The notes: a model not told the origin generated them from the letters alone. Positions 30,930-47,619 are shown, counted from the stretch's first letter. The stretch is 50,552 nucleotides of DNA from Shigella phage SH6 (KX828710), one strand, 5' to 3'. Translations and numbers: made by a program.

Positions 30930-31994
30930 ATGTTCCAAGTATTCACATCAAGTCAGCTTTCTAATGACGAGTATCATAGCAACGAAGGTTGGGCGGCAGA
31001 GTATGTAAGCGGTTCTAGCCTTGCAGAAATTTATCAGACTTGCCCGGCTAACTGGCGATTCAAGAAGAACGAGACGACTAAAGCGCTGGAGTTTGGTACT
31101 CAGTCGCACACCAACTTTGAGAGCCGAGATCTGTTTACTGCATCGTATGCTCGTTGTCCGGCTCAGGCAGAGTTTAAAGATCTCATTACTTCGCAGGCGG
31201 CGCTGGCAGCAAAATTAAAATCTTTTGGCCTGAAAGGTACATCCGGTAAGCAGTACCCGGACCTCATCAAAATGATGGTTGATTGTGGCGAAGACCTTAA
31301 CGTTCAATACCTGATTGAACTGATCGCAGAGGCTGAGGCGCGCGCTGAAGGAAAGAAACTCGTCGACGCTGATAAATACGACGCCTGCATGAAGATGAGA
31401 GCTATACTTGAACAGAACCCCGATCATGAAGCGTGCATCAACAGCGAAACAGCGCAGCGTGAAATCTCAATCTTCGGTGAAATATCCGGCGTCAAGGTTA
31501 AGGTTCGACTAGATCATCTTGACTACAAAGAGAATGTACCAGGTCGTGTCCTGACTGGTTATGATGAGAATGGAGATCCGGTATTCGAAGATGTTATTTT
31601 CCCTGAAGCACTGATTATCACTGACTTCAAAACAACAATGAGCGCCAACCCGTTAGAGTTCCCGAGACTGGCATACAATCACGGCTATTACCTGAAGATG
31701 GCATTGCAGCATGACCTGCTACGACGCGCAATCCAGGCTGGAGCCTTTGAAGGTAACTTCCCGGAAGATATTCCGATCGTGGTTCGATTGCTTGCGCAGG
31801 AGAAAAAAGAGCCTTATATCGCACTGGCTTACCGTATGACCATGGAGCAAATCAGGATCGGTCGCAACCAGTACATTAGCGTAGTACACACTTACAAGGC
31901 TTGTTCTGAAATGGATGTTTGGCCTGGGTACGCTGGCGACGCAAGCGAGATCGAACTTGAAACGCCATCATGGGTGCGTTACCAAAATAAGTAA
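30930..31994 (+). CDS. PD-(D/E)xK recombination exonuclease (YqaJ/RecE-like)
   Basis: RLDHLD ... IITDFKTT nuclease motifs; upstream of Erf and SSB. Confidence 0.6.
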   Translation: MFQVFTSSQLSNDEYHSNEGWAAEYVSGSSLAEIYQTCPANWRFKKNETTKALEFGTQSHTNFESRDLFTASYARCPAQAEFKDLITSQAALAAKLKSFGLKGTSGKQYPDLIKMMVDCGEDLNVQYLIELIAEAEARAEGKKLVDADKYDACMKMRAILEQNPDHEACINSETAQREISIFGEISGVKVKVRLDHLDYKENVPGRVLTGYDENGDPVFEDVIFPEALIITDFKTTMSANPLEFPRLAYNHGYYLKMALQHDLLRRAIQAGAFEGNFPEDIPIVVRLLAQEKKEPYIALAYRMTMEQIRIGRNQYISVVHTYKACSEMDVWPGYAGDASEIELETPSWVRYQNK

Positions 31995-32068
31995 ACGGCA
32001 CAAATAGCTAAACAAATAATTAATGAGGTGTTATAATGCACCTCATACACCAATCAGGAGAAGCTAAG

Positions 32069-32716
32069 ATGCAATTATCACCAGAAACAAACGAAATCCT
32101 TCCGGCACTGTTCAATGCTCGAAATAAATTCGCAAAAGCAAAGAAAGACGCAAAAAACAATCACCTGAAAAATTCATACGCAACTCTTGATGCAATGATG
32201 GCAGCTGTTAGCCCGGCGCTAACCGACAACGATATTATGATCCTGCAATCAATGCTTGATACAAGCACGGAAACGACCTTCCATCTTGAGACAATGTTGA
32301 TTCATAAATCCGGGCAGTGGGCCAAATTCTTCATGATGATGCCGATTGCAAAACGCGATCCGCAAGGCGTAGGTTCCGCAATGACGTATGCTCGACGTTA
32401 CTCACTCGCTGCGGCGCTGGGGATTAGCCAGAGTGATGACGATGCTCAGCTTGCAGTGAAATCTGTCAAGGACTGGAAAAAAGAACTTGATGCGTGTGAA
32501 GATATCGAATCACTGAAAGAGGTATGGGCTAACGCTTACCGCCAGACGGATACGGCAAGCAAGTCAATAATTCAGGATCACTACAACGCACTTAAGGCTA
32601 AGTTTGAGATCGGTAAAGCTCGTGGTATTCGCCCGGCGCAACCGGAACAGAAAAAACAGGTTGAAGCAACGAGCGCGAAGCCTGTACAATCTCAATCAAT
32701 CACCAACTTCGAATAA
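32069..32716 (+). CDS. erf: Erf-family single-strand annealing protein
   Basis: GSAMTYARRYSLAAALGI core typical of Erf; ATG with AGGAGAAGC RBS. Confidence 0.7.
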   Translation: MQLSPETNEILPALFNARNKFAKAKKDAKNNHLKNSYATLDAMMAAVSPALTDNDIMILQSMLDTSTETTFHLETMLIHKSGQWAKFFMMMPIAKRDPQGVGSAMTYARRYSLAAALGISQSDDDAQLAVKSVKDWKKELDACEDIESLKEVWANAYRQTDTASKSIIQDHYNALKAKFEIGKARGIRPAQPEQKKQVEATSAKPVQSQSITNFE

Positions 32717-32762: not shown

Positions 32763-33188
32763 ATGCATATTATCACTGGCGAGATCCGTAAAGAACCAAA
32801 GATTCTGGAACGTAACGGAGGAAATACTTATATCATCGAACTGGCAGAAAGCTACAAACCGCGTGATGGCGATCGAGAATACACCAACTACACATTCTTT
32901 TTTAGCGATGGTGGAAAGCCTGGTCTTGCTGACTGGTATCGTGAGGCTTTTCAAGTTGGGCGAGTCGTGTCGGTATCATGCGAAACATTGAAGATCTCAT
33001 CCCGCGAGCATAACGGAACGGTTTACAATTCATTGCAGGCAGCTGACTTCCCTAGACTGGTATTCAGTCAACGTGGTCAAAGTAACCAGCAACAACTAGC
33101 GCATCAGCAACAAAATCAACGATCTCAACATCAACCACAACCGCAACCAAATCCACAATCAACATTTGACGACGATATCCCATTCTAA
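32763..33188 (+). CDS. ssb: single-stranded DNA-binding protein
   Basis: OB-fold-sized N-terminus, Gln/Pro-rich linker and canonical acidic tip FDDDIPF. Confidence 0.75.
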   Translation: MHIITGEIRKEPKILERNGGNTYIIELAESYKPRDGDREYTNYTFFFSDGGKPGLADWYREAFQVGRVVSVSCETLKISSREHNGTVYNSLQAADFPRLVFSQRGQSNQQQLAHQQQNQRSQHQPQPQPNPQSTFDDDIPF

Positions 33189-34979: not shown

Positions 34980-35003
34980 ATAAAAAACCGCCCGAAGGCG
35001 GTT
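34980..35003 (-). terminator. rho-independent terminator after primase gene (minus strand)
   Basis: ACCGCC CGAA GGCGGT hairpin preceded on plus strand by A-run. Confidence 0.55.
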
Positions 35004-35937
35004 AGAGTAGGTCGCTTGCTGAGAATAATTTGGCTTGCATTCCTGAGCGGTATCCTCCGGGGTTCGGTATGATTATTTTTAATTGTCTGTCGTCTGCCAT
35101 GTACAAGGTATCCTTGTCTGAAGGTTCGCACGCTACCCTTACCTCTCGATCACCTTTATACCTGTATGCAACAATTTCGAGGTTTTCAGGGGTGAAGCAG
35201 GCCCATACCTCTTGCTTTGTGTGAAATGCAATATGCTGAGCATCAATCCAGTTAAGGCATAAGTAGATCGCCTTTTCAGTTTTACCAGTCACGGCAACCG
35301 AGCAACTCGTGTATTTCTTCGCATAAAATGACTCTCTTCCTTCTTCATCAATAATCAAAATATTGCAAAACTCATCATCAAGCCCATCCTCGTGCACAAG
35401 TTGACACGGTATAGTGTGAAATACACTCTCTCTTCCATCCTCGCTACGCTTTATACCGACATCGAATGATTCGGTGGGTAGTGACTCAAACACGCTCAAC
35501 GGCGTATTTATACGTTTCTCTGTACGCTCCATAACCTTCATCACCGCCTCATGTTCAGCCATCATGACATTGACACCTGACACCGGAGTCCGGCGCGCTT
35601 TCTTGTTTGCCTTGACGATGTATTCCTGCGGAACCTTTCCGAGAAATCTTCCCAAGATGTTTACGCATTCGCTGTACGGCATACCAGTCAACTTCATCAG
35701 CCAGCCAATACCAGAGTCGTTACCGCATGAGTTGCAGATCGCGCCGCCGTCGCCCGGAGTGTTCAGGTTATCAGTCCAGCGAAAACGGTCTTTACCTCCG
35801 CAGTTGGGGCAAGGTTGGTGCTTCTTATTAAAAACATCATTCGGCAATCCGCAGATTGATTGGAAAGCCTCGCGCCATAACCCCTTCATGTACGGTAAAA
35901 CGTCCTCTTTCTGAAACATCATAAATTCTTCGTTCAC
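35002..35937 (-). CDS. DNA primase (zinc-ribbon type, putative)
   Basis: CPNCGG...CNSCG zinc ribbon near N-terminus; replication module context; GTG start. Confidence 0.55.
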   Translation of the reverse strand: MNEEFMMFQKEDVLPYMKGLWREAFQSICGLPNDVFNKKHQPCPNCGGKDRFRWTDNLNTPGDGGAICNSCGNDSGIGWLMKLTGMPYSECVNILGRFLGKVPQEYIVKANKKARRTPVSGVNVMMAEHEAVMKVMERTEKRINTPLSVFESLPTESFDVGIKRSEDGRESVFHTIPCQLVHEDGLDDEFCNILIIDEEGRESFYAKKYTSCSVAVTGKTEKAIYLCLNWIDAQHIAFHTKQEVWACFTPENLEIVAYRYKGDREVRVACEPSDKDTLYMADDRQLKIIIPNPGGYRSGMQAKLFSASDLL

Positions 35938-44285: not shown

Positions 44286-45857
44286 TTAACCCATCAGTCG
44301 AGGATTGATGAAAACAATATCATCAATACGGCAAGTGTAGTTCATCTCTTCGAGCGTGATCAGCAGGCTGTCGATTCGCTCAGATACTTTCTGCTGACCG
44401 TTGAACGGCGTAACGTTCCGGCACTTTGCAACAATACTATGAATAGGTGCGCGGCCTTTGTTCTTCTTCGCGATCTCAGTGATAACATCAATCAGCTTAC
44501 GAGATTCAGCCTCATCACCAGCATACCCGGCAGCGCTGGCAGACGACAGATAAGTCCTGGAAAGCTCATTGAAAATCATGATTGCTTCCTGCATTGTTTC
44601 AAGGTCAATCTCACGGTTGGAACGGTTCGGTGATTCACCCTCCCAATTCTTGATCGTGTGGAGAACTGAAGCAATACGCAAGGCATGCTTATCGAACTTG
44701 CCTAGATGACCGCGTAGCATTGAGTGAGAGTATTTTCCCCCGGCTGCGAAATCCGGCTCCATCGCCTGACGCGCAAGGTTTAATTCACGCATAGCATTGC
44801 GGCTTACAGAGAGAACAATGTTATCCTCCTTCATAATGTTGTGCACGAGTCGATAATATTTACTCACCAACCCTCGATCGACTTCCTTATACAGCGCATC
44901 ACCATTTTCATCGCAAAGAATACGAGTACCTAAAAGCGGTTCCTCGCGAACCAGGAGGAAACGCTCAGATACACCGATGCCGCGCTGGCCTGCGTCCATG
45001 ATACCCTTGATTGTTTCATCCTGCGCAATGACGCAGATCGAACCGACTGGGCAAAGAGATAAGTTGTTGTCCTGATTTGAACGCGCAACCTCCATATGGT
45101 TTTTATCCCACGCCTTGAGGATAAGCTCGCTGTTTGATTTCTTATCAGAGCCGCCATAAGTCAGGCCAAGCAATGTATTTATTGCCGTTGCCTCATCAGA
45201 GATTACTGAGAAATGACCTTGAACAGCGGCTACTTTCGCAAGACCTTCCGGTGTAGGATCTGATACCGCAAAAACAATATCAGCCATCTTCTTGATCTTC
45301 TCTTCAAGTTTTTCCTTGTCCTCGTAGAGCGCCGCCGTCGTGTTACCCTTCGGATCGTTTTTGATTTCCTTCTCGACCTGACGTAGCTGACTGGTTAAAC
45401 GGATGCGCTCCTTTTTTCGCTCTTCATTCAGCCGCTGAATCTCCGCACGCATAGGTGTAATCGCCGCTGAGTTAATCGCCGATTTACCTGTTGAAGGTGG
45501 CTGGCTAATCACCATATAAAGAGCGGTCGGCTGCTCTTCTCCGTGATATTGCACCCAAAACTTCCCGAGCATCGCGGCTGAGATGCACCCAATGAAATGA
45601 GCGTACGCAGACGAAACAGGGAACTGTACAGACTCAGCCTTTGCTTTTGCATATTCGAATACCAGGTTATCGCCACCTAACGAAATCAGCGGGAACTTAT
45701 CGTTTCCACTGTTGATATCGATCGGATCTTGCCAAAACGAAACTGAATCCCCATAGCTGTTTTCACGAATTGCGATCGCCACCGGATTAACTCCAGTGCT
45801 ATTTGCGATCTCAATAATCTGTTGGTAATTCAGTTTTGGCTTAATATTAAACATCAC
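44286..45857 (-). CDS. P-loop NTPase, putative replication-associated protein
   Basis: Walker A-like QPPSTGKSA; 523 aa; cassette upstream. Confidence 0.5.
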   Translation of the reverse strand: MMFNIKPKLNYQQIIEIANSTGVNPVAIAIRENSYGDSVSFWQDPIDINSGNDKFPLISLGGDNLVFEYAKAKAESVQFPVSSAYAHFIGCISAAMLGKFWVQYHGEEQPTALYMVISQPPSTGKSAINSAAITPMRAEIQRLNEERKKERIRLTSQLRQVEKEIKNDPKGNTTAALYEDKEKLEEKIKKMADIVFAVSDPTPEGLAKVAAVQGHFSVISDEATAINTLLGLTYGGSDKKSNSELILKAWDKNHMEVARSNQDNNLSLCPVGSICVIAQDETIKGIMDAGQRGIGVSERFLLVREEPLLGTRILCDENGDALYKEVDRGLVSKYYRLVHNIMKEDNIVLSVSRNAMRELNLARQAMEPDFAAGGKYSHSMLRGHLGKFDKHALRIASVLHTIKNWEGESPNRSNREIDLETMQEAIMIFNELSRTYLSSASAAGYAGDEAESRKLIDVITEIAKKNKGRAPIHSIVAKCRNVTPFNGQQKVSERIDSLLITLEEMNYTCRIDDIVFINPRLMG

Positions 45858-45884
45858 AATAAACTCCTTAGTTGACGGTGTGAA

Positions 45885-45927
45885 TGATACACCGCCAATG
45901 GTACACGCGTTTTACAAAAAGTGCTAT
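45885..45927 (-). promoter_or_regulatory. intergenic cassette (minus) upstream of 44286..45857
   Basis: Minus strand ATAGCACTTTTTGTAAAAC; TATCAT at +22; AAGGAG RBS. Confidence 0.5.
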
Positions 45928-45930
45928 TGG

Positions 45931-46356
45931 TTATAAGTATTTGGCCTCAAAGGTTGTGCCGTCTGCGATACTAAAACCCACCTCTTCGCGGAATAAGGTC
46001 CAGCGGCATCCGTCCTCATCAAAGATGTAACCAGCTACGCCGCCAAGAGCGCGACCGCTTTCTACCTGGTAACGCTTTCCAACCTTGAATGATTTTTTCA
46101 TCGGGTTGCGATGGTCAAGTCCGGTGCACTTGAGCGTCTTTGTTTTCAACTCGGTGAACTTCGCGAAGAAGATTTCATCAGATCCGTGAATATGTAATTC
46201 ATCATGCTTTTCAAGTTTTAAATACTTCCCGCACTTTAACTTTACTTCGCGAGTACCATCATAGCGCTCACGACCTTTATACAGATTGTTTACTTCGAAT
46301 CCTGTGATTTTGTCTGCGGAAGTGCATTTCAGTTTGATTGATTTCATTGCATTCAC
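45931..46356 (-). CDS. hypothetical protein with two KC..F.V..Y repeats
   Basis: IKLKCTSADKITGFEVNNLY and KTLKCTGL..FKVGKRYQV repeats. Confidence 0.5.
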   Translation of the reverse strand: MNAMKSIKLKCTSADKITGFEVNNLYKGRERYDGTREVKLKCGKYLKLEKHDELHIHGSDEIFFAKFTELKTKTLKCTGLDHRNPMKKSFKVGKRYQVESGRALGGVAGYIFDEDGCRWTLFREEVGFSIADGTTFEAKYL

Positions 46357-46383
46357 TCCTGATTGGTTATCTTGAATAAGGCC

Positions 46384-46427
46384 ACTTTATCAAATGACCT
46401 TACGGCAATATTAACAAATCGTGCTAT
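46384..46427 (-). promoter_or_regulatory. intergenic cassette (minus) upstream of 45931..46356
   Basis: Minus strand ATAGCACGATTTGTTAA; TGaTAAAGT at +22; CCAATCAGGAG RBS. Confidence 0.5.
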
Positions 46428-46637
46428 TTACCAGGGAATGTAATCGTCGTCATTATCATCAATATCATCGCCGGGCATCTCAAAGTTAGGATCGTACTCG
46501 CTTTCAGTATCCATATCCATATCACCAAGAGCCTCATCAAGTGTTATTTCTTTATATGCGACCTTGATGCACCACTCGGCACTAAGCCCGGCATCAAGTG
46601 CTGCAAAATAACGAGTCCAGAAATTATCTTGTTCCAT
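46428..46637 (-). CDS. small highly acidic protein with SSB-tail-like C-terminus
   Basis: 69 aa, C-terminus ..DDIDDNDDDYIPW resembling SSB tip DDDIPF. Confidence 0.5.
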   Translation of the reverse strand: MEQDNFWTRYFAALDAGLSAEWCIKVAYKEITLDEALGDMDMDTESEYDPNFEMPGDDIDDNDDDYIPW

Positions 46638-46640
46638 TAA

Positions 46641-46865
46641 TTAGCTCCACGAATTAATGTAAATCGAGTTAGCCTCAAGCGTTGCACGAACATCCGCATC
46701 TGTTGCATTTATCAGTAGAGAGCCTGGCACGCTTCCGATAACACTATTTCCGTTACGTGTCTTAGTTACCGTCATTGAAATAAAGCCTGAAGACTTATCC
46801 ATCTTGATAACGACGCGGCCTTTCGCGTTCAGGTGCTTGATGATATTCTCAACTTTAATGCTCAT
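46641..46865 (-). CDS. hypothetical protein (74 aa)
   Basis: Internal ATG of track ORF 46641..46910; cassette upstream. Confidence 0.5.
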   Translation of the reverse strand: MSIKVENIIKHLNAKGRVVIKMDKSSGFISMTVTKTRNGNSVIGSVPGSLLINATDADVRATLEANSIYINSWS

Positions 46866-46899
46866 TTTTAATTCCTTTATTTCGTTTGGTGTGGGAGTA

Positions 46900-46946
46900 A
46901 TATATATCACTCCCGATCGTATGTCTTTAGCAATTCGTGCTATTAG
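46900..46946 (-). promoter_or_regulatory. intergenic cassette (minus) upstream of 46641..46865
   Basis: Minus strand TAGCACGAATTGCTAAAG; A/T-rich -10-like TATATA at about +22. Confidence 0.45.
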
Positions 46947-47086
46947 TACTCAGAAATTACCTTGCACTCCTTGATAGTGCCGCCGAGAACTACCTTTTGC
47001 ATCATTGCTTTTTGATGGCTATCGTAAACACGAACATTTTTTACACTGTTAAATTTACCCGTATAGAAAGTGTGAATATAAATCAT
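46943..47086 (-). CDS. possible small protein (47 aa)
   Basis: Own translation MIYIHTFYTGKFNSVKNVRVYDSHQKAMMQKVVLGGTIKECKVISEY; ATGA overlap with upstream gene. Confidence 0.3.
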   Translation of the reverse strand: MIYIHTFYTGKFNSVKNVRVYDSHQKAMMQKVVLGGTIKECKVISEY

Positions 47087-47403
47087 TTTTTGCCGTCCCA
47101 AGTTTGATACGCCGTCACCAGGTTAATACTATGATTGAACTCATCAATGCTAAGAGATCCGATTCGAACCAGTTCTTTGTTATGCTTGATATCAATCATC
47201 CGGCTATATGGATGGCCTGGCAAATACTTGAACAGTCGCTTGCTGTCGGCAATATCTGCGTTGATTCCGTAGAATCGACCCACCGCCGCCTTAACGCGCT
47301 CCATGATGTTTTTTTCGTGGATTGCTGCCGCGTTATTCAGTGCCACAACCGTGCTTCCGTTAATCTTCGGTGACTTCGTTGTGATTTTGTAAGTGTGGTT
47401 CAT
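47083..47403 (-). CDS. hypothetical protein (106 aa)
   Basis: ORF track; GGAGGA RBS. Confidence 0.5.
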   Translation of the reverse strand: MNHTYKITTKSPKINGSTVVALNNAAAIHEKNIMERVKAAVGRFYGINADIADSKRLFKYLPGHPYSRMIDIKHNKELVRIGSLSIDEFNHSINLVTAYQTWDGKK

Positions 47404-47418
47404 TATTCCTCCAACCAG

Positions 47419-47619
47419 TCAGGATAGCTTTCTCGCTTCATCAATGATAACAGGCTCGAGACGCTCAAGTCGAACGCGGAATGTGTTCATAAATCCCTCG
47501 TTGTTCTTAAGTAGTTCGAATGCGTCTGTAGCTTCAATGGCGCTACCACCCATATAGGCAATTACTTTTTTCTGAGTCTTACGTGAGATCGCCACTACGC
47601 GGTAAATATTATCACTCAT
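47419..47619 (-). CDS. hypothetical protein (66 aa)
   Basis: Internal ATG of track ORF 47419..47637 with AGAGG RBS. Confidence 0.5.
   Translation of the reverse strand: MSDNIYRVVAISRKTQKKVIAYMGGSAIEATDAFELLKNNEGFMNTFRVRLERLEPVIIDEARKLS

Follow-up and report, generated by a model that had tools for sequence, protein, structure and literature searches.

The C-terminal tip of bacterial SSB, the protein that binds single-stranded DNA, serves as a hub motif that recruits about 20 genome-maintenance proteins; it is essential, it forms the central recruiting point for the enzymes of replication restart, recombination and repair, and it is pursued as an antibiotic target. Here we consider a small gene of Shigella phage SH6 (KX828710), whose genome of 50,552 nucleotides is the whole stretch analysed and is called the window below. 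The gene encodes a protein of 69 amino acids (aa), homologous to Orf6 of phage T1, which is predicted to lack the OB fold of SSB and ends in a sequence resembling the SSB tip, and this ending is conserved across a large family of phage proteins.

Partners recognise the C-terminal peptide of SSB (SSB-Ct) through three features: a hydrophobic pocket takes up the last residue, Phe, whose alpha-carboxyl is anchored by a basic lip, and a basic ridge receives the Asp residues; the penultimate Pro is the ssb-113 position (PMC10164576). In the two-hot-spot model the peptide is read as DFDD plus DIPF; a bulkier para-substituted Phe at the last position increases the affinity for exonuclease I about tenfold, and Leu is accepted at the position of Ile (PMC10143822).

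An SSB-type acidic tail and tip on a small protein that is not an SSB would have a precedent in principle in phage T7, its function here being putative. The T7 gp4 helicase-primase is likewise a non-SSB phage protein with an acidic tail of the SSB kind and a terminal aromatic residue (...DTDF), and since this tail uses the same polymerase site as the tail of the gp2.5 SSB, a second protein sharing the SSB tail motif and its docking site has been described before (PMC12339929). However, the T7 tail is carried by a large enzyme and targets the phage polymerase, whereas here the tip is the main feature of a 69-aa protein and copies the host-type I-P-F. Synthetic SSB-Ct peptide mimetics and small-molecule blockers have the same action as is predicted here, namely occupying the SSB-Ct pocket, and since larger aromatic groups at the last position raise their affinity for exonuclease I, the terminal Trp of the phage protein may be the natural equivalent of such a group (PMC10143822). 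Those are laboratory compounds, whereas a natural phage-encoded protein of this kind is absent from the literature searched. T7 Ocr, T7 gp5.9 and ArdA resemble it in small size, in high acidity and in being phage proteins directed at the host, but they are folded and present a fixed array of carboxylates, while the acidic region considered here is predicted to be disordered and evolves fast; no sequence or fold similarity to these DNA mimics was found.

The 69-aa protein compared with SSB

The window belongs to a T1-like phage (Tunavirus, Drexlerviridae) and shares about 93.6% identity with phage T1 over positions 45800-47500. The open reading frame (ORF), whose translation is MEQDNFWTRYFAALDAGLSAEWCIKVAYKEITLDEALGDMDMDTESEYDPNFEMPGDDIDDNDDDYIPW, is a real gene: the product is 90% identical to T1 Orf6 (AAP49993.1, 'hypothetical protein') and matches the phrog_9085 profile over its full length (residues 1-69 on profile positions 1-69, E=3.5e-46). 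The initial annotation had described a strongly acidic protein ending in DDDYIPW, and the translation agrees, with 21 D/E against 3 K/R, a net charge of about -18 and a computed pI of 4.05. The final 32 residues contain 14 acidic and no basic ones, and the stretch DDNDDD precedes YIPW, after which the stop codon leaves a free C-terminal aromatic residue.

The expectation that such a protein is too small for an OB fold was borne out by structure prediction. AlphaFold2, run with the family alignments, gave a model of low-to-moderate confidence (predicted local distance difference test, pLDDT, 63.6) with three short helices (residues 6-15, 20-27 and 33-37), no strands and nothing structured beyond residue 38; for a homologue with a Cys-type tail a fourth helix was obtained, the Cys region not being confidently modelled. 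The model thus predicts a protein without an OB fold. Membership of the SSB family, whose OB-fold core takes about 100 residues, is not indicated either by its length, by its helices or by any match in Pfam, NCBIfam or the Protein Data Bank (PDB). In particular, 32 family members searched against Pfam at E<=0.01 returned no match and NCBIfam returned nothing, the profile had 0 matches among PDB sequences (E<=10), and Foldseek, comparing the low-confidence model with the PDB, found nothing below E=5. Two sub-threshold Pfam hits, SbcC_Walker_B (15.2 bits) and SgrT (12.7 bits), stand against cut-offs of 27 and were rejected as noise. The literature searched describes neither the orf6 family nor any phage protein that bears an SSB tip but lacks an OB fold, and a 2026 paper on a T1-like genome does not mention the protein; this agrees with the initial annotation, which was aware of no described family of this kind.

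With SSB-Ct the 69-aa protein shares the placement at the extreme C-terminus, a disordered net-acidic tail, a terminal aromatic residue, Pro at -2, Ile or Leu at -3 and an acidic residue at -5, that is, the position and the residues expected of a docking motif of the SSB-Ct type, which it putatively is. It differs from SSB in having no OB fold and no sign of single-stranded DNA (ssDNA) binding, and in carrying instead a helical module of about 46 residues. The family consensus, [DE]-x-I-P-F, agrees with D-D-I-P-F at four of the five positions. In the Nouzillyvirus members, which end F-D-D-G-I-P-F, a proximal Phe stands at -7, exactly as in the DFDDDIPF of SSB, and this fits the two-hot-spot model (PMC10143822); at the nucleotide level, a 24-nt comparison of the Nouzillyvirus tail with an ssb gene showed them to be no closer than the shared amino acids account for. 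The terminal Trp and the variants with Leu, Val or Phe found in the family are plausible ligands of SSB-Ct pockets, since bulkier aromatics at the last position raise the affinity for exonuclease I and Leu is accepted in place of Ile (PMC10143822).

The phage has an SSB of its own, which, as the initial annotation had noticed, ends in a tip of the canonical kind (...QSTFDDDIPF). PHROG 44 alone recognises this protein, with no Pfam SSB match at E<=0.001 and no PDB sequence match, and for this reason we regard it as an OB-fold SSB that has diverged; its linker is rich in Q and P, and its tip is perfectly of the host type. Among 34 related phage genomes of several genera the SSB ends in FDDDIPF in 29, in FDADIPF in 2 and is truncated or read through in 3. 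Preservation of the host-type tip in related phage SSBs suggests that the host's partners of SSB are used in the course of infection.

Conservation of the tip and of the module

Homologues were sought by word-indexed search, by profile search, with HMMER over 1.84 billion cluster representatives and with tblastn. The word-indexed search gave 63 close homologues and the profile search 261, HMMER found 39 clusters at 50% identity, and tblastn placed the gene in 460-501 phage records, from phages of Escherichia, Shigella, Klebsiella, Salmonella, Citrobacter, Enterobacter and Cronobacter; the family helicase is present in 899 records. The family is thus known from about 500 genomes of Drexlerviridae, whereas bacterial and archaeal genomes, 185,579 of which were scanned, yielded no relative.

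The ending [ILVMFE]-P-[FW], optionally followed by W or L, closes 194 of 200 distinct short forms: 183 end directly in P-F or P-W and 11, from Webervirus, add W or L. The six exceptions comprise two disrupted or truncated genes, one change of P to Q, one ISF ending and two Cys-rich endings without a tip. In a divergence sample of 25 tip-bearing representatives with less than 60% similarity, Pro at -2 is invariant, Ile occupies -3 in 80%, 21 end in F and 4 in W, and D/E is present at -5 in 20, while positions -6 and -8 to -10 have an entropy of 3.1-3.5 bits. The tails of all 25, which have 29-61 residues, carry a net negative charge (-3 to -13) and are predicted to be unstructured, as in the linker-plus-tip architecture of SSB. 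Across the different tail types the endings IPW, IPF, FPF, LPF, VPF and MPF are found; judged from the alignments, Φ-P-F/W is the sole constant of a tail that is otherwise variable, always net-acidic and borne by relatives with less than 50% identity. A tip so conserved, held by an acidic and flexible tether, marks what we would class as a short linear motif of the C-terminus.

Chance could hardly give such an ending. The window has 321 ORFs with a length of 40 aa or more, and only 2 of them, those of the 69-aa protein and of SSB, close with [ILVFM]P[FWY]; among about 3100 ORFs outside the family, from about 580 kb of related loci, a single one ends in [ILVMF]P[FW]. These frequencies indicate that the tip-type ending is not accidental. 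IPW is nearly invariant (at least 90%) among close homologues. Comparing codons in nine Tunavirus alleles of the same length, we counted 34 synonymous and 19 amino-acid variants in the module (residues 1-46), 16 and 23 in the linker (residues 47-64), and 3 and 1 in the tip (residues 65-69). YIPW is unchanged in all nine, and its Y and P codons vary synonymously.

The initial annotation had overlooked the N-terminal part of the protein, which is strongly conserved and, by alignment, occurs also in longer phage proteins without a tip; the tip is thus half of the story. The module, with the consensus F-W-x-R-x3-A-x-D-A-G-L-x2-E-x3-K-V-A-Y-x4-L-x2-A-L-G-x-M-D-M-D-x-E-S, is common to all short forms and to the tip-less proteins of 155-309 aa, and a motif of the LGDMDMDTES type is found in the long forms of Ackermannviridae as well. 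Right after the module, the Tunavirus alleles use four synonymous codons for P50 and two codons for F52 of the segment EYDPNF. This segment has counterparts in tails that are otherwise unrelated: the pattern [FY]-D-P-x-[FL] recurs as EYDPNF in T1 types, as NFDPSC or DFDPGC inside the Cys knuckle and as GFDPDL in long forms.

Several tail types follow the module. The tail of the window and of other Tunavirus members is acidic, contains ESE[FY]DPNF and ends ...DDDYIPW; in Nouzillyvirus it reads ...GDDFDYRLKFDDGIPF, with the end KFDDGIPF. The commonest type, [DY]-C-x-C-x5-6-C-x-[DE/R]-C-[IF]-P-F, occurs in Tlsvirus, Warwickvirus, Vilniusvirus and many metagenomic lineages, and its pattern suggests a four-cysteine zinc knuckle directly ahead of the tip. 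Webervirus proteins, from Klebsiella phages, have the same type plus one residue (IPFW, VPFW, VPFL; occasionally IPF), and other tails without Cys end ...TFDFDQLPF, ...DFDNNHLPF, ...SLMEHVPF or ...DPNSVEPF. Most members carry the Cys knuckle (P0097-P0154; L026:3121-3354; L049:4001-4225), the Cys-free acidic tail of the window being a minority form. Modules have been exchanged between lineages, since chimeras exist in which a Webervirus-type module is joined to a T1-type tail (P0069) or a DPNF segment to a Cys knuckle (P0100).

Two further PHROG clusters match the module: phrog_9323, which holds the short forms of Cys type, and phrog_4823, the middle of which corresponds to Ackermannviridae forms of 175-185 aa. 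PHROG 9085, 9323 and 4823 are all 'unknown function' clusters, whose mutual link and conserved tip are unrecorded in the library. The tip-less long forms are Ackermannviridae proteins of 155-226 aa (phrog_4823, ending ...MAGGQAAWEWQNEKNAWLDSRL), proteins in other contigs, and proteins of 217-309 aa with a C-terminal zinc ribbon. In those of Taipeivirus, of 157-159-kb contigs and of one 69-kb contig, the part in common with the short forms is confined to the central module (AKDAGLDD..AE.IA.G..TLEAALGDMDMDAE); the rest consists of an N-terminal domain peculiar to them, the acidic stretch EDDPEDDGFDPDLHGGEDD and the end given above, with no PF tip. Because these proteins carry the module without the tip, the module is an autonomous unit, probably for docking or self-association, to which the tip is one of several attachments. 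The gene neighbourhoods of the long forms in contigs of Ackermannviridae size were uninformative, apart from that of Klebsiella phage T765, where a DNA polymerase gene lies about 1 kb away.

The source annotations of the homologues read 'hypothetical protein', apart from a few records. In several GenBank records a 79-aa homologue is labelled 'putative cytosine DNA methylase' (for example Klebsiella phage Domnhall gp48, L006:1483-1722), a label probably, if not almost certainly, carried over from the methyltransferase gene that follows. In addition, about 20 records of 'Campylobacter phage' and one of 'Streptococcus phage', of 47-50 kb, contain the T1-like gene (MG065665, MG065680, MG065657, OR786094); they are probably mislabelled or contaminant Drexlerviridae genomes.

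The locus and its neighbours

The features of the locus, of the phage SSB and of the long forms are collected in Table 1. The gene belongs to a leftward operon of small genes, of a kind typical of early regions, and the stop codon of the upstream gene lies 3 nt ahead of its start. For this upstream gene, mechanical ORF calling gives a GTG start at 46910 (46641..46910, 89 aa); since PHROG matches it from residue 16 onwards and T1 Orf5 has 74 aa, translation probably starts at the ATG at 46865 instead. Across the genera of Drexlerviridae the same order is kept, with orf5 (phrog_4344), orf6, 0-3 inserted genes (often a DNA methyltransferase), orf7 (phrog_2684) and the DUF3987 helicase, and for this reason the orf6-type gene is considered part of the conserved backbone of a leftward operon that ends in the helicase.

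Table 1. Coordinates of the features discussed; positions refer to the window unless another locus is named.
Feature	Coordinates	Strand	Basis
69-aa acidic protein, coding sequence with stop codon	46428..46637	-	T1 Orf6 homologue, phrog_9085
Residues 1-46, conserved helical module FW.R...A.DAGL..E..IKVAY....L..ALGxMDMDxES	46500..46637	-	Alignments, AlphaFold2 helices, synonymous-rich variation
Residues 37-46, LGDMDMDTES, most invariant motif of the family, long forms included	46500..46529	-	Invariant columns L37, G38, M40, M42, E45
Residues 47-52, EYDPNF, second conserved tail motif [FY]-D-P-x-[FL]	46482..46499	-	Recurrence in other tails
Residues 53-65, variable strongly acidic linker, predicted disordered	46443..46481	-	Allele variation, pLDDT 53-58
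Residues 66-69, YIPW, SSB-tip-like C-terminal short linear motif (putative)	46431..46442	-	Conservation, background rate
GGAG ribosome-binding site, 7 nt 5' of the ATG, within the final codons of the upstream gene (operon arrangement)	46646..46649	-	Sequence reading
T1 Orf5 homologue, phrog_4344, upstream syntenic gene	46641..46865	-	PHROG match, synteny
T1 Orf7 homologue, phrog_2684, 141 aa, downstream syntenic gene of unknown function	45931..46356	-	PHROG match, synteny
DUF3987 / phrog_2373 replicative-type DNA helicase	44286..45857	-	End of the conserved orf5-orf6-orf7-helicase order
Phage SSB, phrog_44, 'single strand DNA binding protein'	32763..33188	+	E=1.4e-23
SSB C-terminal tip FDDDIPF, same as host-type SSB-Ct	33165..33185	+	Sequence
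ERF-family recombinase, SSB neighbour	32036..32716
PDDEXK exonuclease, SSB neighbour	30930..31994
Long-form loci	L082:3773-4300, L083-L086, L080:3827-4333, L121:1273-1800 (Klebsiella phage T765)

The window encodes the ERF recombinase, the PDDEXK exonuclease, a primase (35002..35937), the DUF3987 helicase and Dam, with no DNA polymerase gene among its genes. In T1 an HNH endonuclease gene (46085..46624) separates Orf7 from the helicase, whereas the window has a spacer of 73 nt (45858..45930), and this difference points to an insertion polymorphism of a mobile HNH gene. The helicase of the window is 99.8% identical to that of phage CLB_P3, and its Orf6 is 71% identical to the homologue of Shigella phage vB_SflS-ISF001 and 86% to that of one IMG/VR contig; because the helicase is nearly identical to a relative while Orf6 diverges, we consider the window a mosaic T1-like genome.

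Possible roles of the tip

We infer, at a probability that falls slightly short of an even chance, that the tip docks in SSB-Ct pockets, that the module adds specificity or multivalency, and that the protein rivals SSB tails in binding to a single partner or a small number of them, which it would inhibit. The protein would work in two parts, a helical module of about 46 residues and, after it, a disordered and strongly acidic tail whose end copies the SSB tip. The tip would insert its terminal aromatic residue and Pro into the hydrophobic pocket and basic lip of SSB-interacting proteins, while the acidic residues of the tail would lie on the basic ridge of the partner. The helical module could add a second contact giving specificity, or could self-associate so that each particle presents several tips, as the SSB tetramer does. 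Exonuclease I, RecQ/RecJ, RecG and PriA are candidate partners, and the purpose might be to keep host enzymes recruited by SSB off the recombination and replication intermediates which the phage forms with its ERF and exonuclease.

Docking of this kind is supported by the near-invariance of YIPW in close relatives while the linker varies, and by the identity of the positions kept here, the terminal aromatic, Pro and Asp, with those that define SSB-Ct recognition (PMC10164576). It is also consistent with the importance that host SSB partners seem to have in infection by a phage with no DNA polymerase gene but with ERF, exonuclease, primase and helicase, and with the conserved orf5-orf6-orf7-helicase order. 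If the docking is extended to the whole family, T1 Orf6 and its approximately 500 relatives would be natural antagonists or re-routers of the bacterial SSB hub, with a perhaps self-associating module and a tip tuned (Trp, Zn knuckle) to outcompete SSB; this wider proposal is a tentative one, which we hold to be possible and well below an even chance.

Several observations weigh against the docking of the tip in SSB-Ct pockets, which is putative. The protein of the window departs from the SSB tip in having Trp at -1, and we know of no natural SSB that ends in Trp, and in having Tyr instead of Asp at -4, a position occupied in the family by Cys, Tyr, Gly, Glu or His and never constrained to Asp. 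Most relatives, unlike SSB, have a CxC..CxxC knuckle directly ahead of the tip, and the FPF group has Arg or Lys at -5/-6. The Webervirus endings IPFW, VPFW and VPFL, again unlike SSB, add a residue after PF, and this conflicts with the canonical anchoring of the alpha-carboxyl of Phe by the basic lip (PMC10164576). The initial annotation had read the ending as an SSB-tip-like motif on a protein without an OB fold; this central idea has the support of the family-wide Φ-P-F/W and of the consensus [DE]-x-I-P-F, some homologues showing the departures just given, and the decoy for SSB-interacting host enzymes that it proposed is a putative role. Moreover, the tip of the small protein shows no co-variation with that of the phage SSB in the 34 genomes, where the SSB tip is constant, and a general decoy would compete with the phage's own SSB tip too. 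Conservation is greater in the N-terminal module than in the tail, and the alignments place this module also in the tip-less long proteins, so that the core function may lie in the module. Finally, two isolates carry disrupted alleles: DELF2 (L025:4001-4215) has a 1-nt insertion causing a +1 frameshift after codon 25, and vB_SsoS_008 (L012:812-1190) has a stop right after MDMD. As the tail sequence downstream is intact, these represent either recent loss or sequencing errors; if they are not errors, the gene is dispensable in the laboratory, and dispensability, if true, would suit a host-directed accessory role better than an essential part of the replisome.

Much of this evidence also bears on the possibility, which we rate as rather unlikely, that Φ-P-F/W is a docking motif for a phage or other host partner outside the SSB interactome, its likeness to SSB-Ct being convergent or coincidental and the MDMD module having the main function. 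Such a partner would agree with the extra residue tolerated after PF in Klebsiella phages, with the Cys4 knuckle and basic residues ahead of the tip in many members, with the freedom of position -4, with the greater conservation of the module and its existence without the tip, and with the lack of co-variation with SSB. However, the terminal aromatic, Pro at -2, Ile or Leu at -3, the acidic residue at -5 and the net-acidic disordered tail are together what defines SSB-Ct (PMC10164576). One lineage has FDDGIPF with the spacing of SSB, and tails without Cys are often rich in D and F before the tip, as in TFDFDQLPF and DFDNNHLPF. To our knowledge, moreover, no other bacterial system reads a C-terminal I-P-F. 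An adaptor, in which the module holds a phage replication protein such as the DUF3987 helicase or Orf7 while the tip brings to it either a host partner of SSB, such as the Pol III clamp-loader subunit chi, or the phage ERF, seems to us improbable. The gene order conserved across genera would suit it, as would the need of a phage without its own DNA polymerase for the clamp-loader chi, and the module is autonomous and reused with other C-terminal parts in the long forms, as a docking domain would be; furthermore, the T7 helicase-primase has an SSB-like tail contacting the polymerase (PMC12339929), and phage annealing proteins depend on the C-terminal tail of SSB (PMC13490951). Against this, the phage SSB already has a perfect FDDDIPF tip able to recruit host partners, apparent loss-of-function alleles in viable isolates are not expected of an essential replisome tether, the small gene is found by tblastn in only about 460-500 of the 899 records with the helicase, and what links the module with the helicase is confined to gene order.

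The initial annotation had also suggested an inhibitor of the DNA-mimic type. We consider a nucleic-acid mimic very improbable, whether a folded mimic of double-stranded DNA in the manner of Ocr, ArdA and T7 gp5.9 or an ssDNA mimic occupying an OB-fold groove, for example of the host SSB. The strong charge, shared in sign by all family members, and the pI near 4 would be in keeping with it, and acidic SSB tails do compete with ssDNA for the OB fold in E. coli SSB and T7 gp2.5. However, a folded mimic of DNA needs its carboxylates in a rigid array, while the acidic part here is predicted to be disordered; its acidic positions and their spacing are unconserved and evolve fast, varying even among Tunavirus alleles, and in relatives other tail types take their place. 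Conservation lies in the hydrophobic tip and the helical module instead of a charge pattern, and no fold match to any mimic was obtained. It is hardly credible, lastly, that the ending is a degradation or turnover signal limiting the protein to early infection, or a C-terminus without function. Bacterial proteases, such as ClpXP and the tail-specific protease, do read hydrophobic C-termini, and the gene lies in an operon of the early type, but the known cytoplasmic C-degrons (LAA-type) differ, the invariant Pro at -2, combined with Ile at -3 and an acidic -5 position, has a specificity well beyond that of known degrons, and conservation spans tails that otherwise share nothing.

Other C-terminal motifs were considered and rejected. 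A beta-clamp-binding motif (QL[SD]LF type) is defined by Gln at position 1 and hydrophobic Leu/Phe positions, with no requirement for Pro, whereas in the family the last 8 positions hold no conserved Gln and Pro is invariant at -2. A look-alike of the FtsZ C-terminal peptide (DIPAFL), a SecA-type zinc motif and a C-degron are likewise at odds with the conserved positions.

If competition with SSB tails is true, virulent siphophages would decide which of the host's enzymes for repair and restart gain access to their DNA, and the family would provide, in the literature searched, the first case of a virus mimicking SSB-Ct as a short linear motif. A phage protein that copies the tip without binding DNA would then edit the SSB interactome of the host, and the partner that is most important in T1 infection would be named by it; the evolved high-affinity variants of the tip (I-P-W, Zn-knuckle-I-P-F) would also offer templates for inhibitors. 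If the tip binds otherwise, the family would still represent an uncharacterised conserved module (ALGxMDMDxES) joined to a docking motif in hundreds of phages of Enterobacteriaceae, including therapeutic Klebsiella phages.

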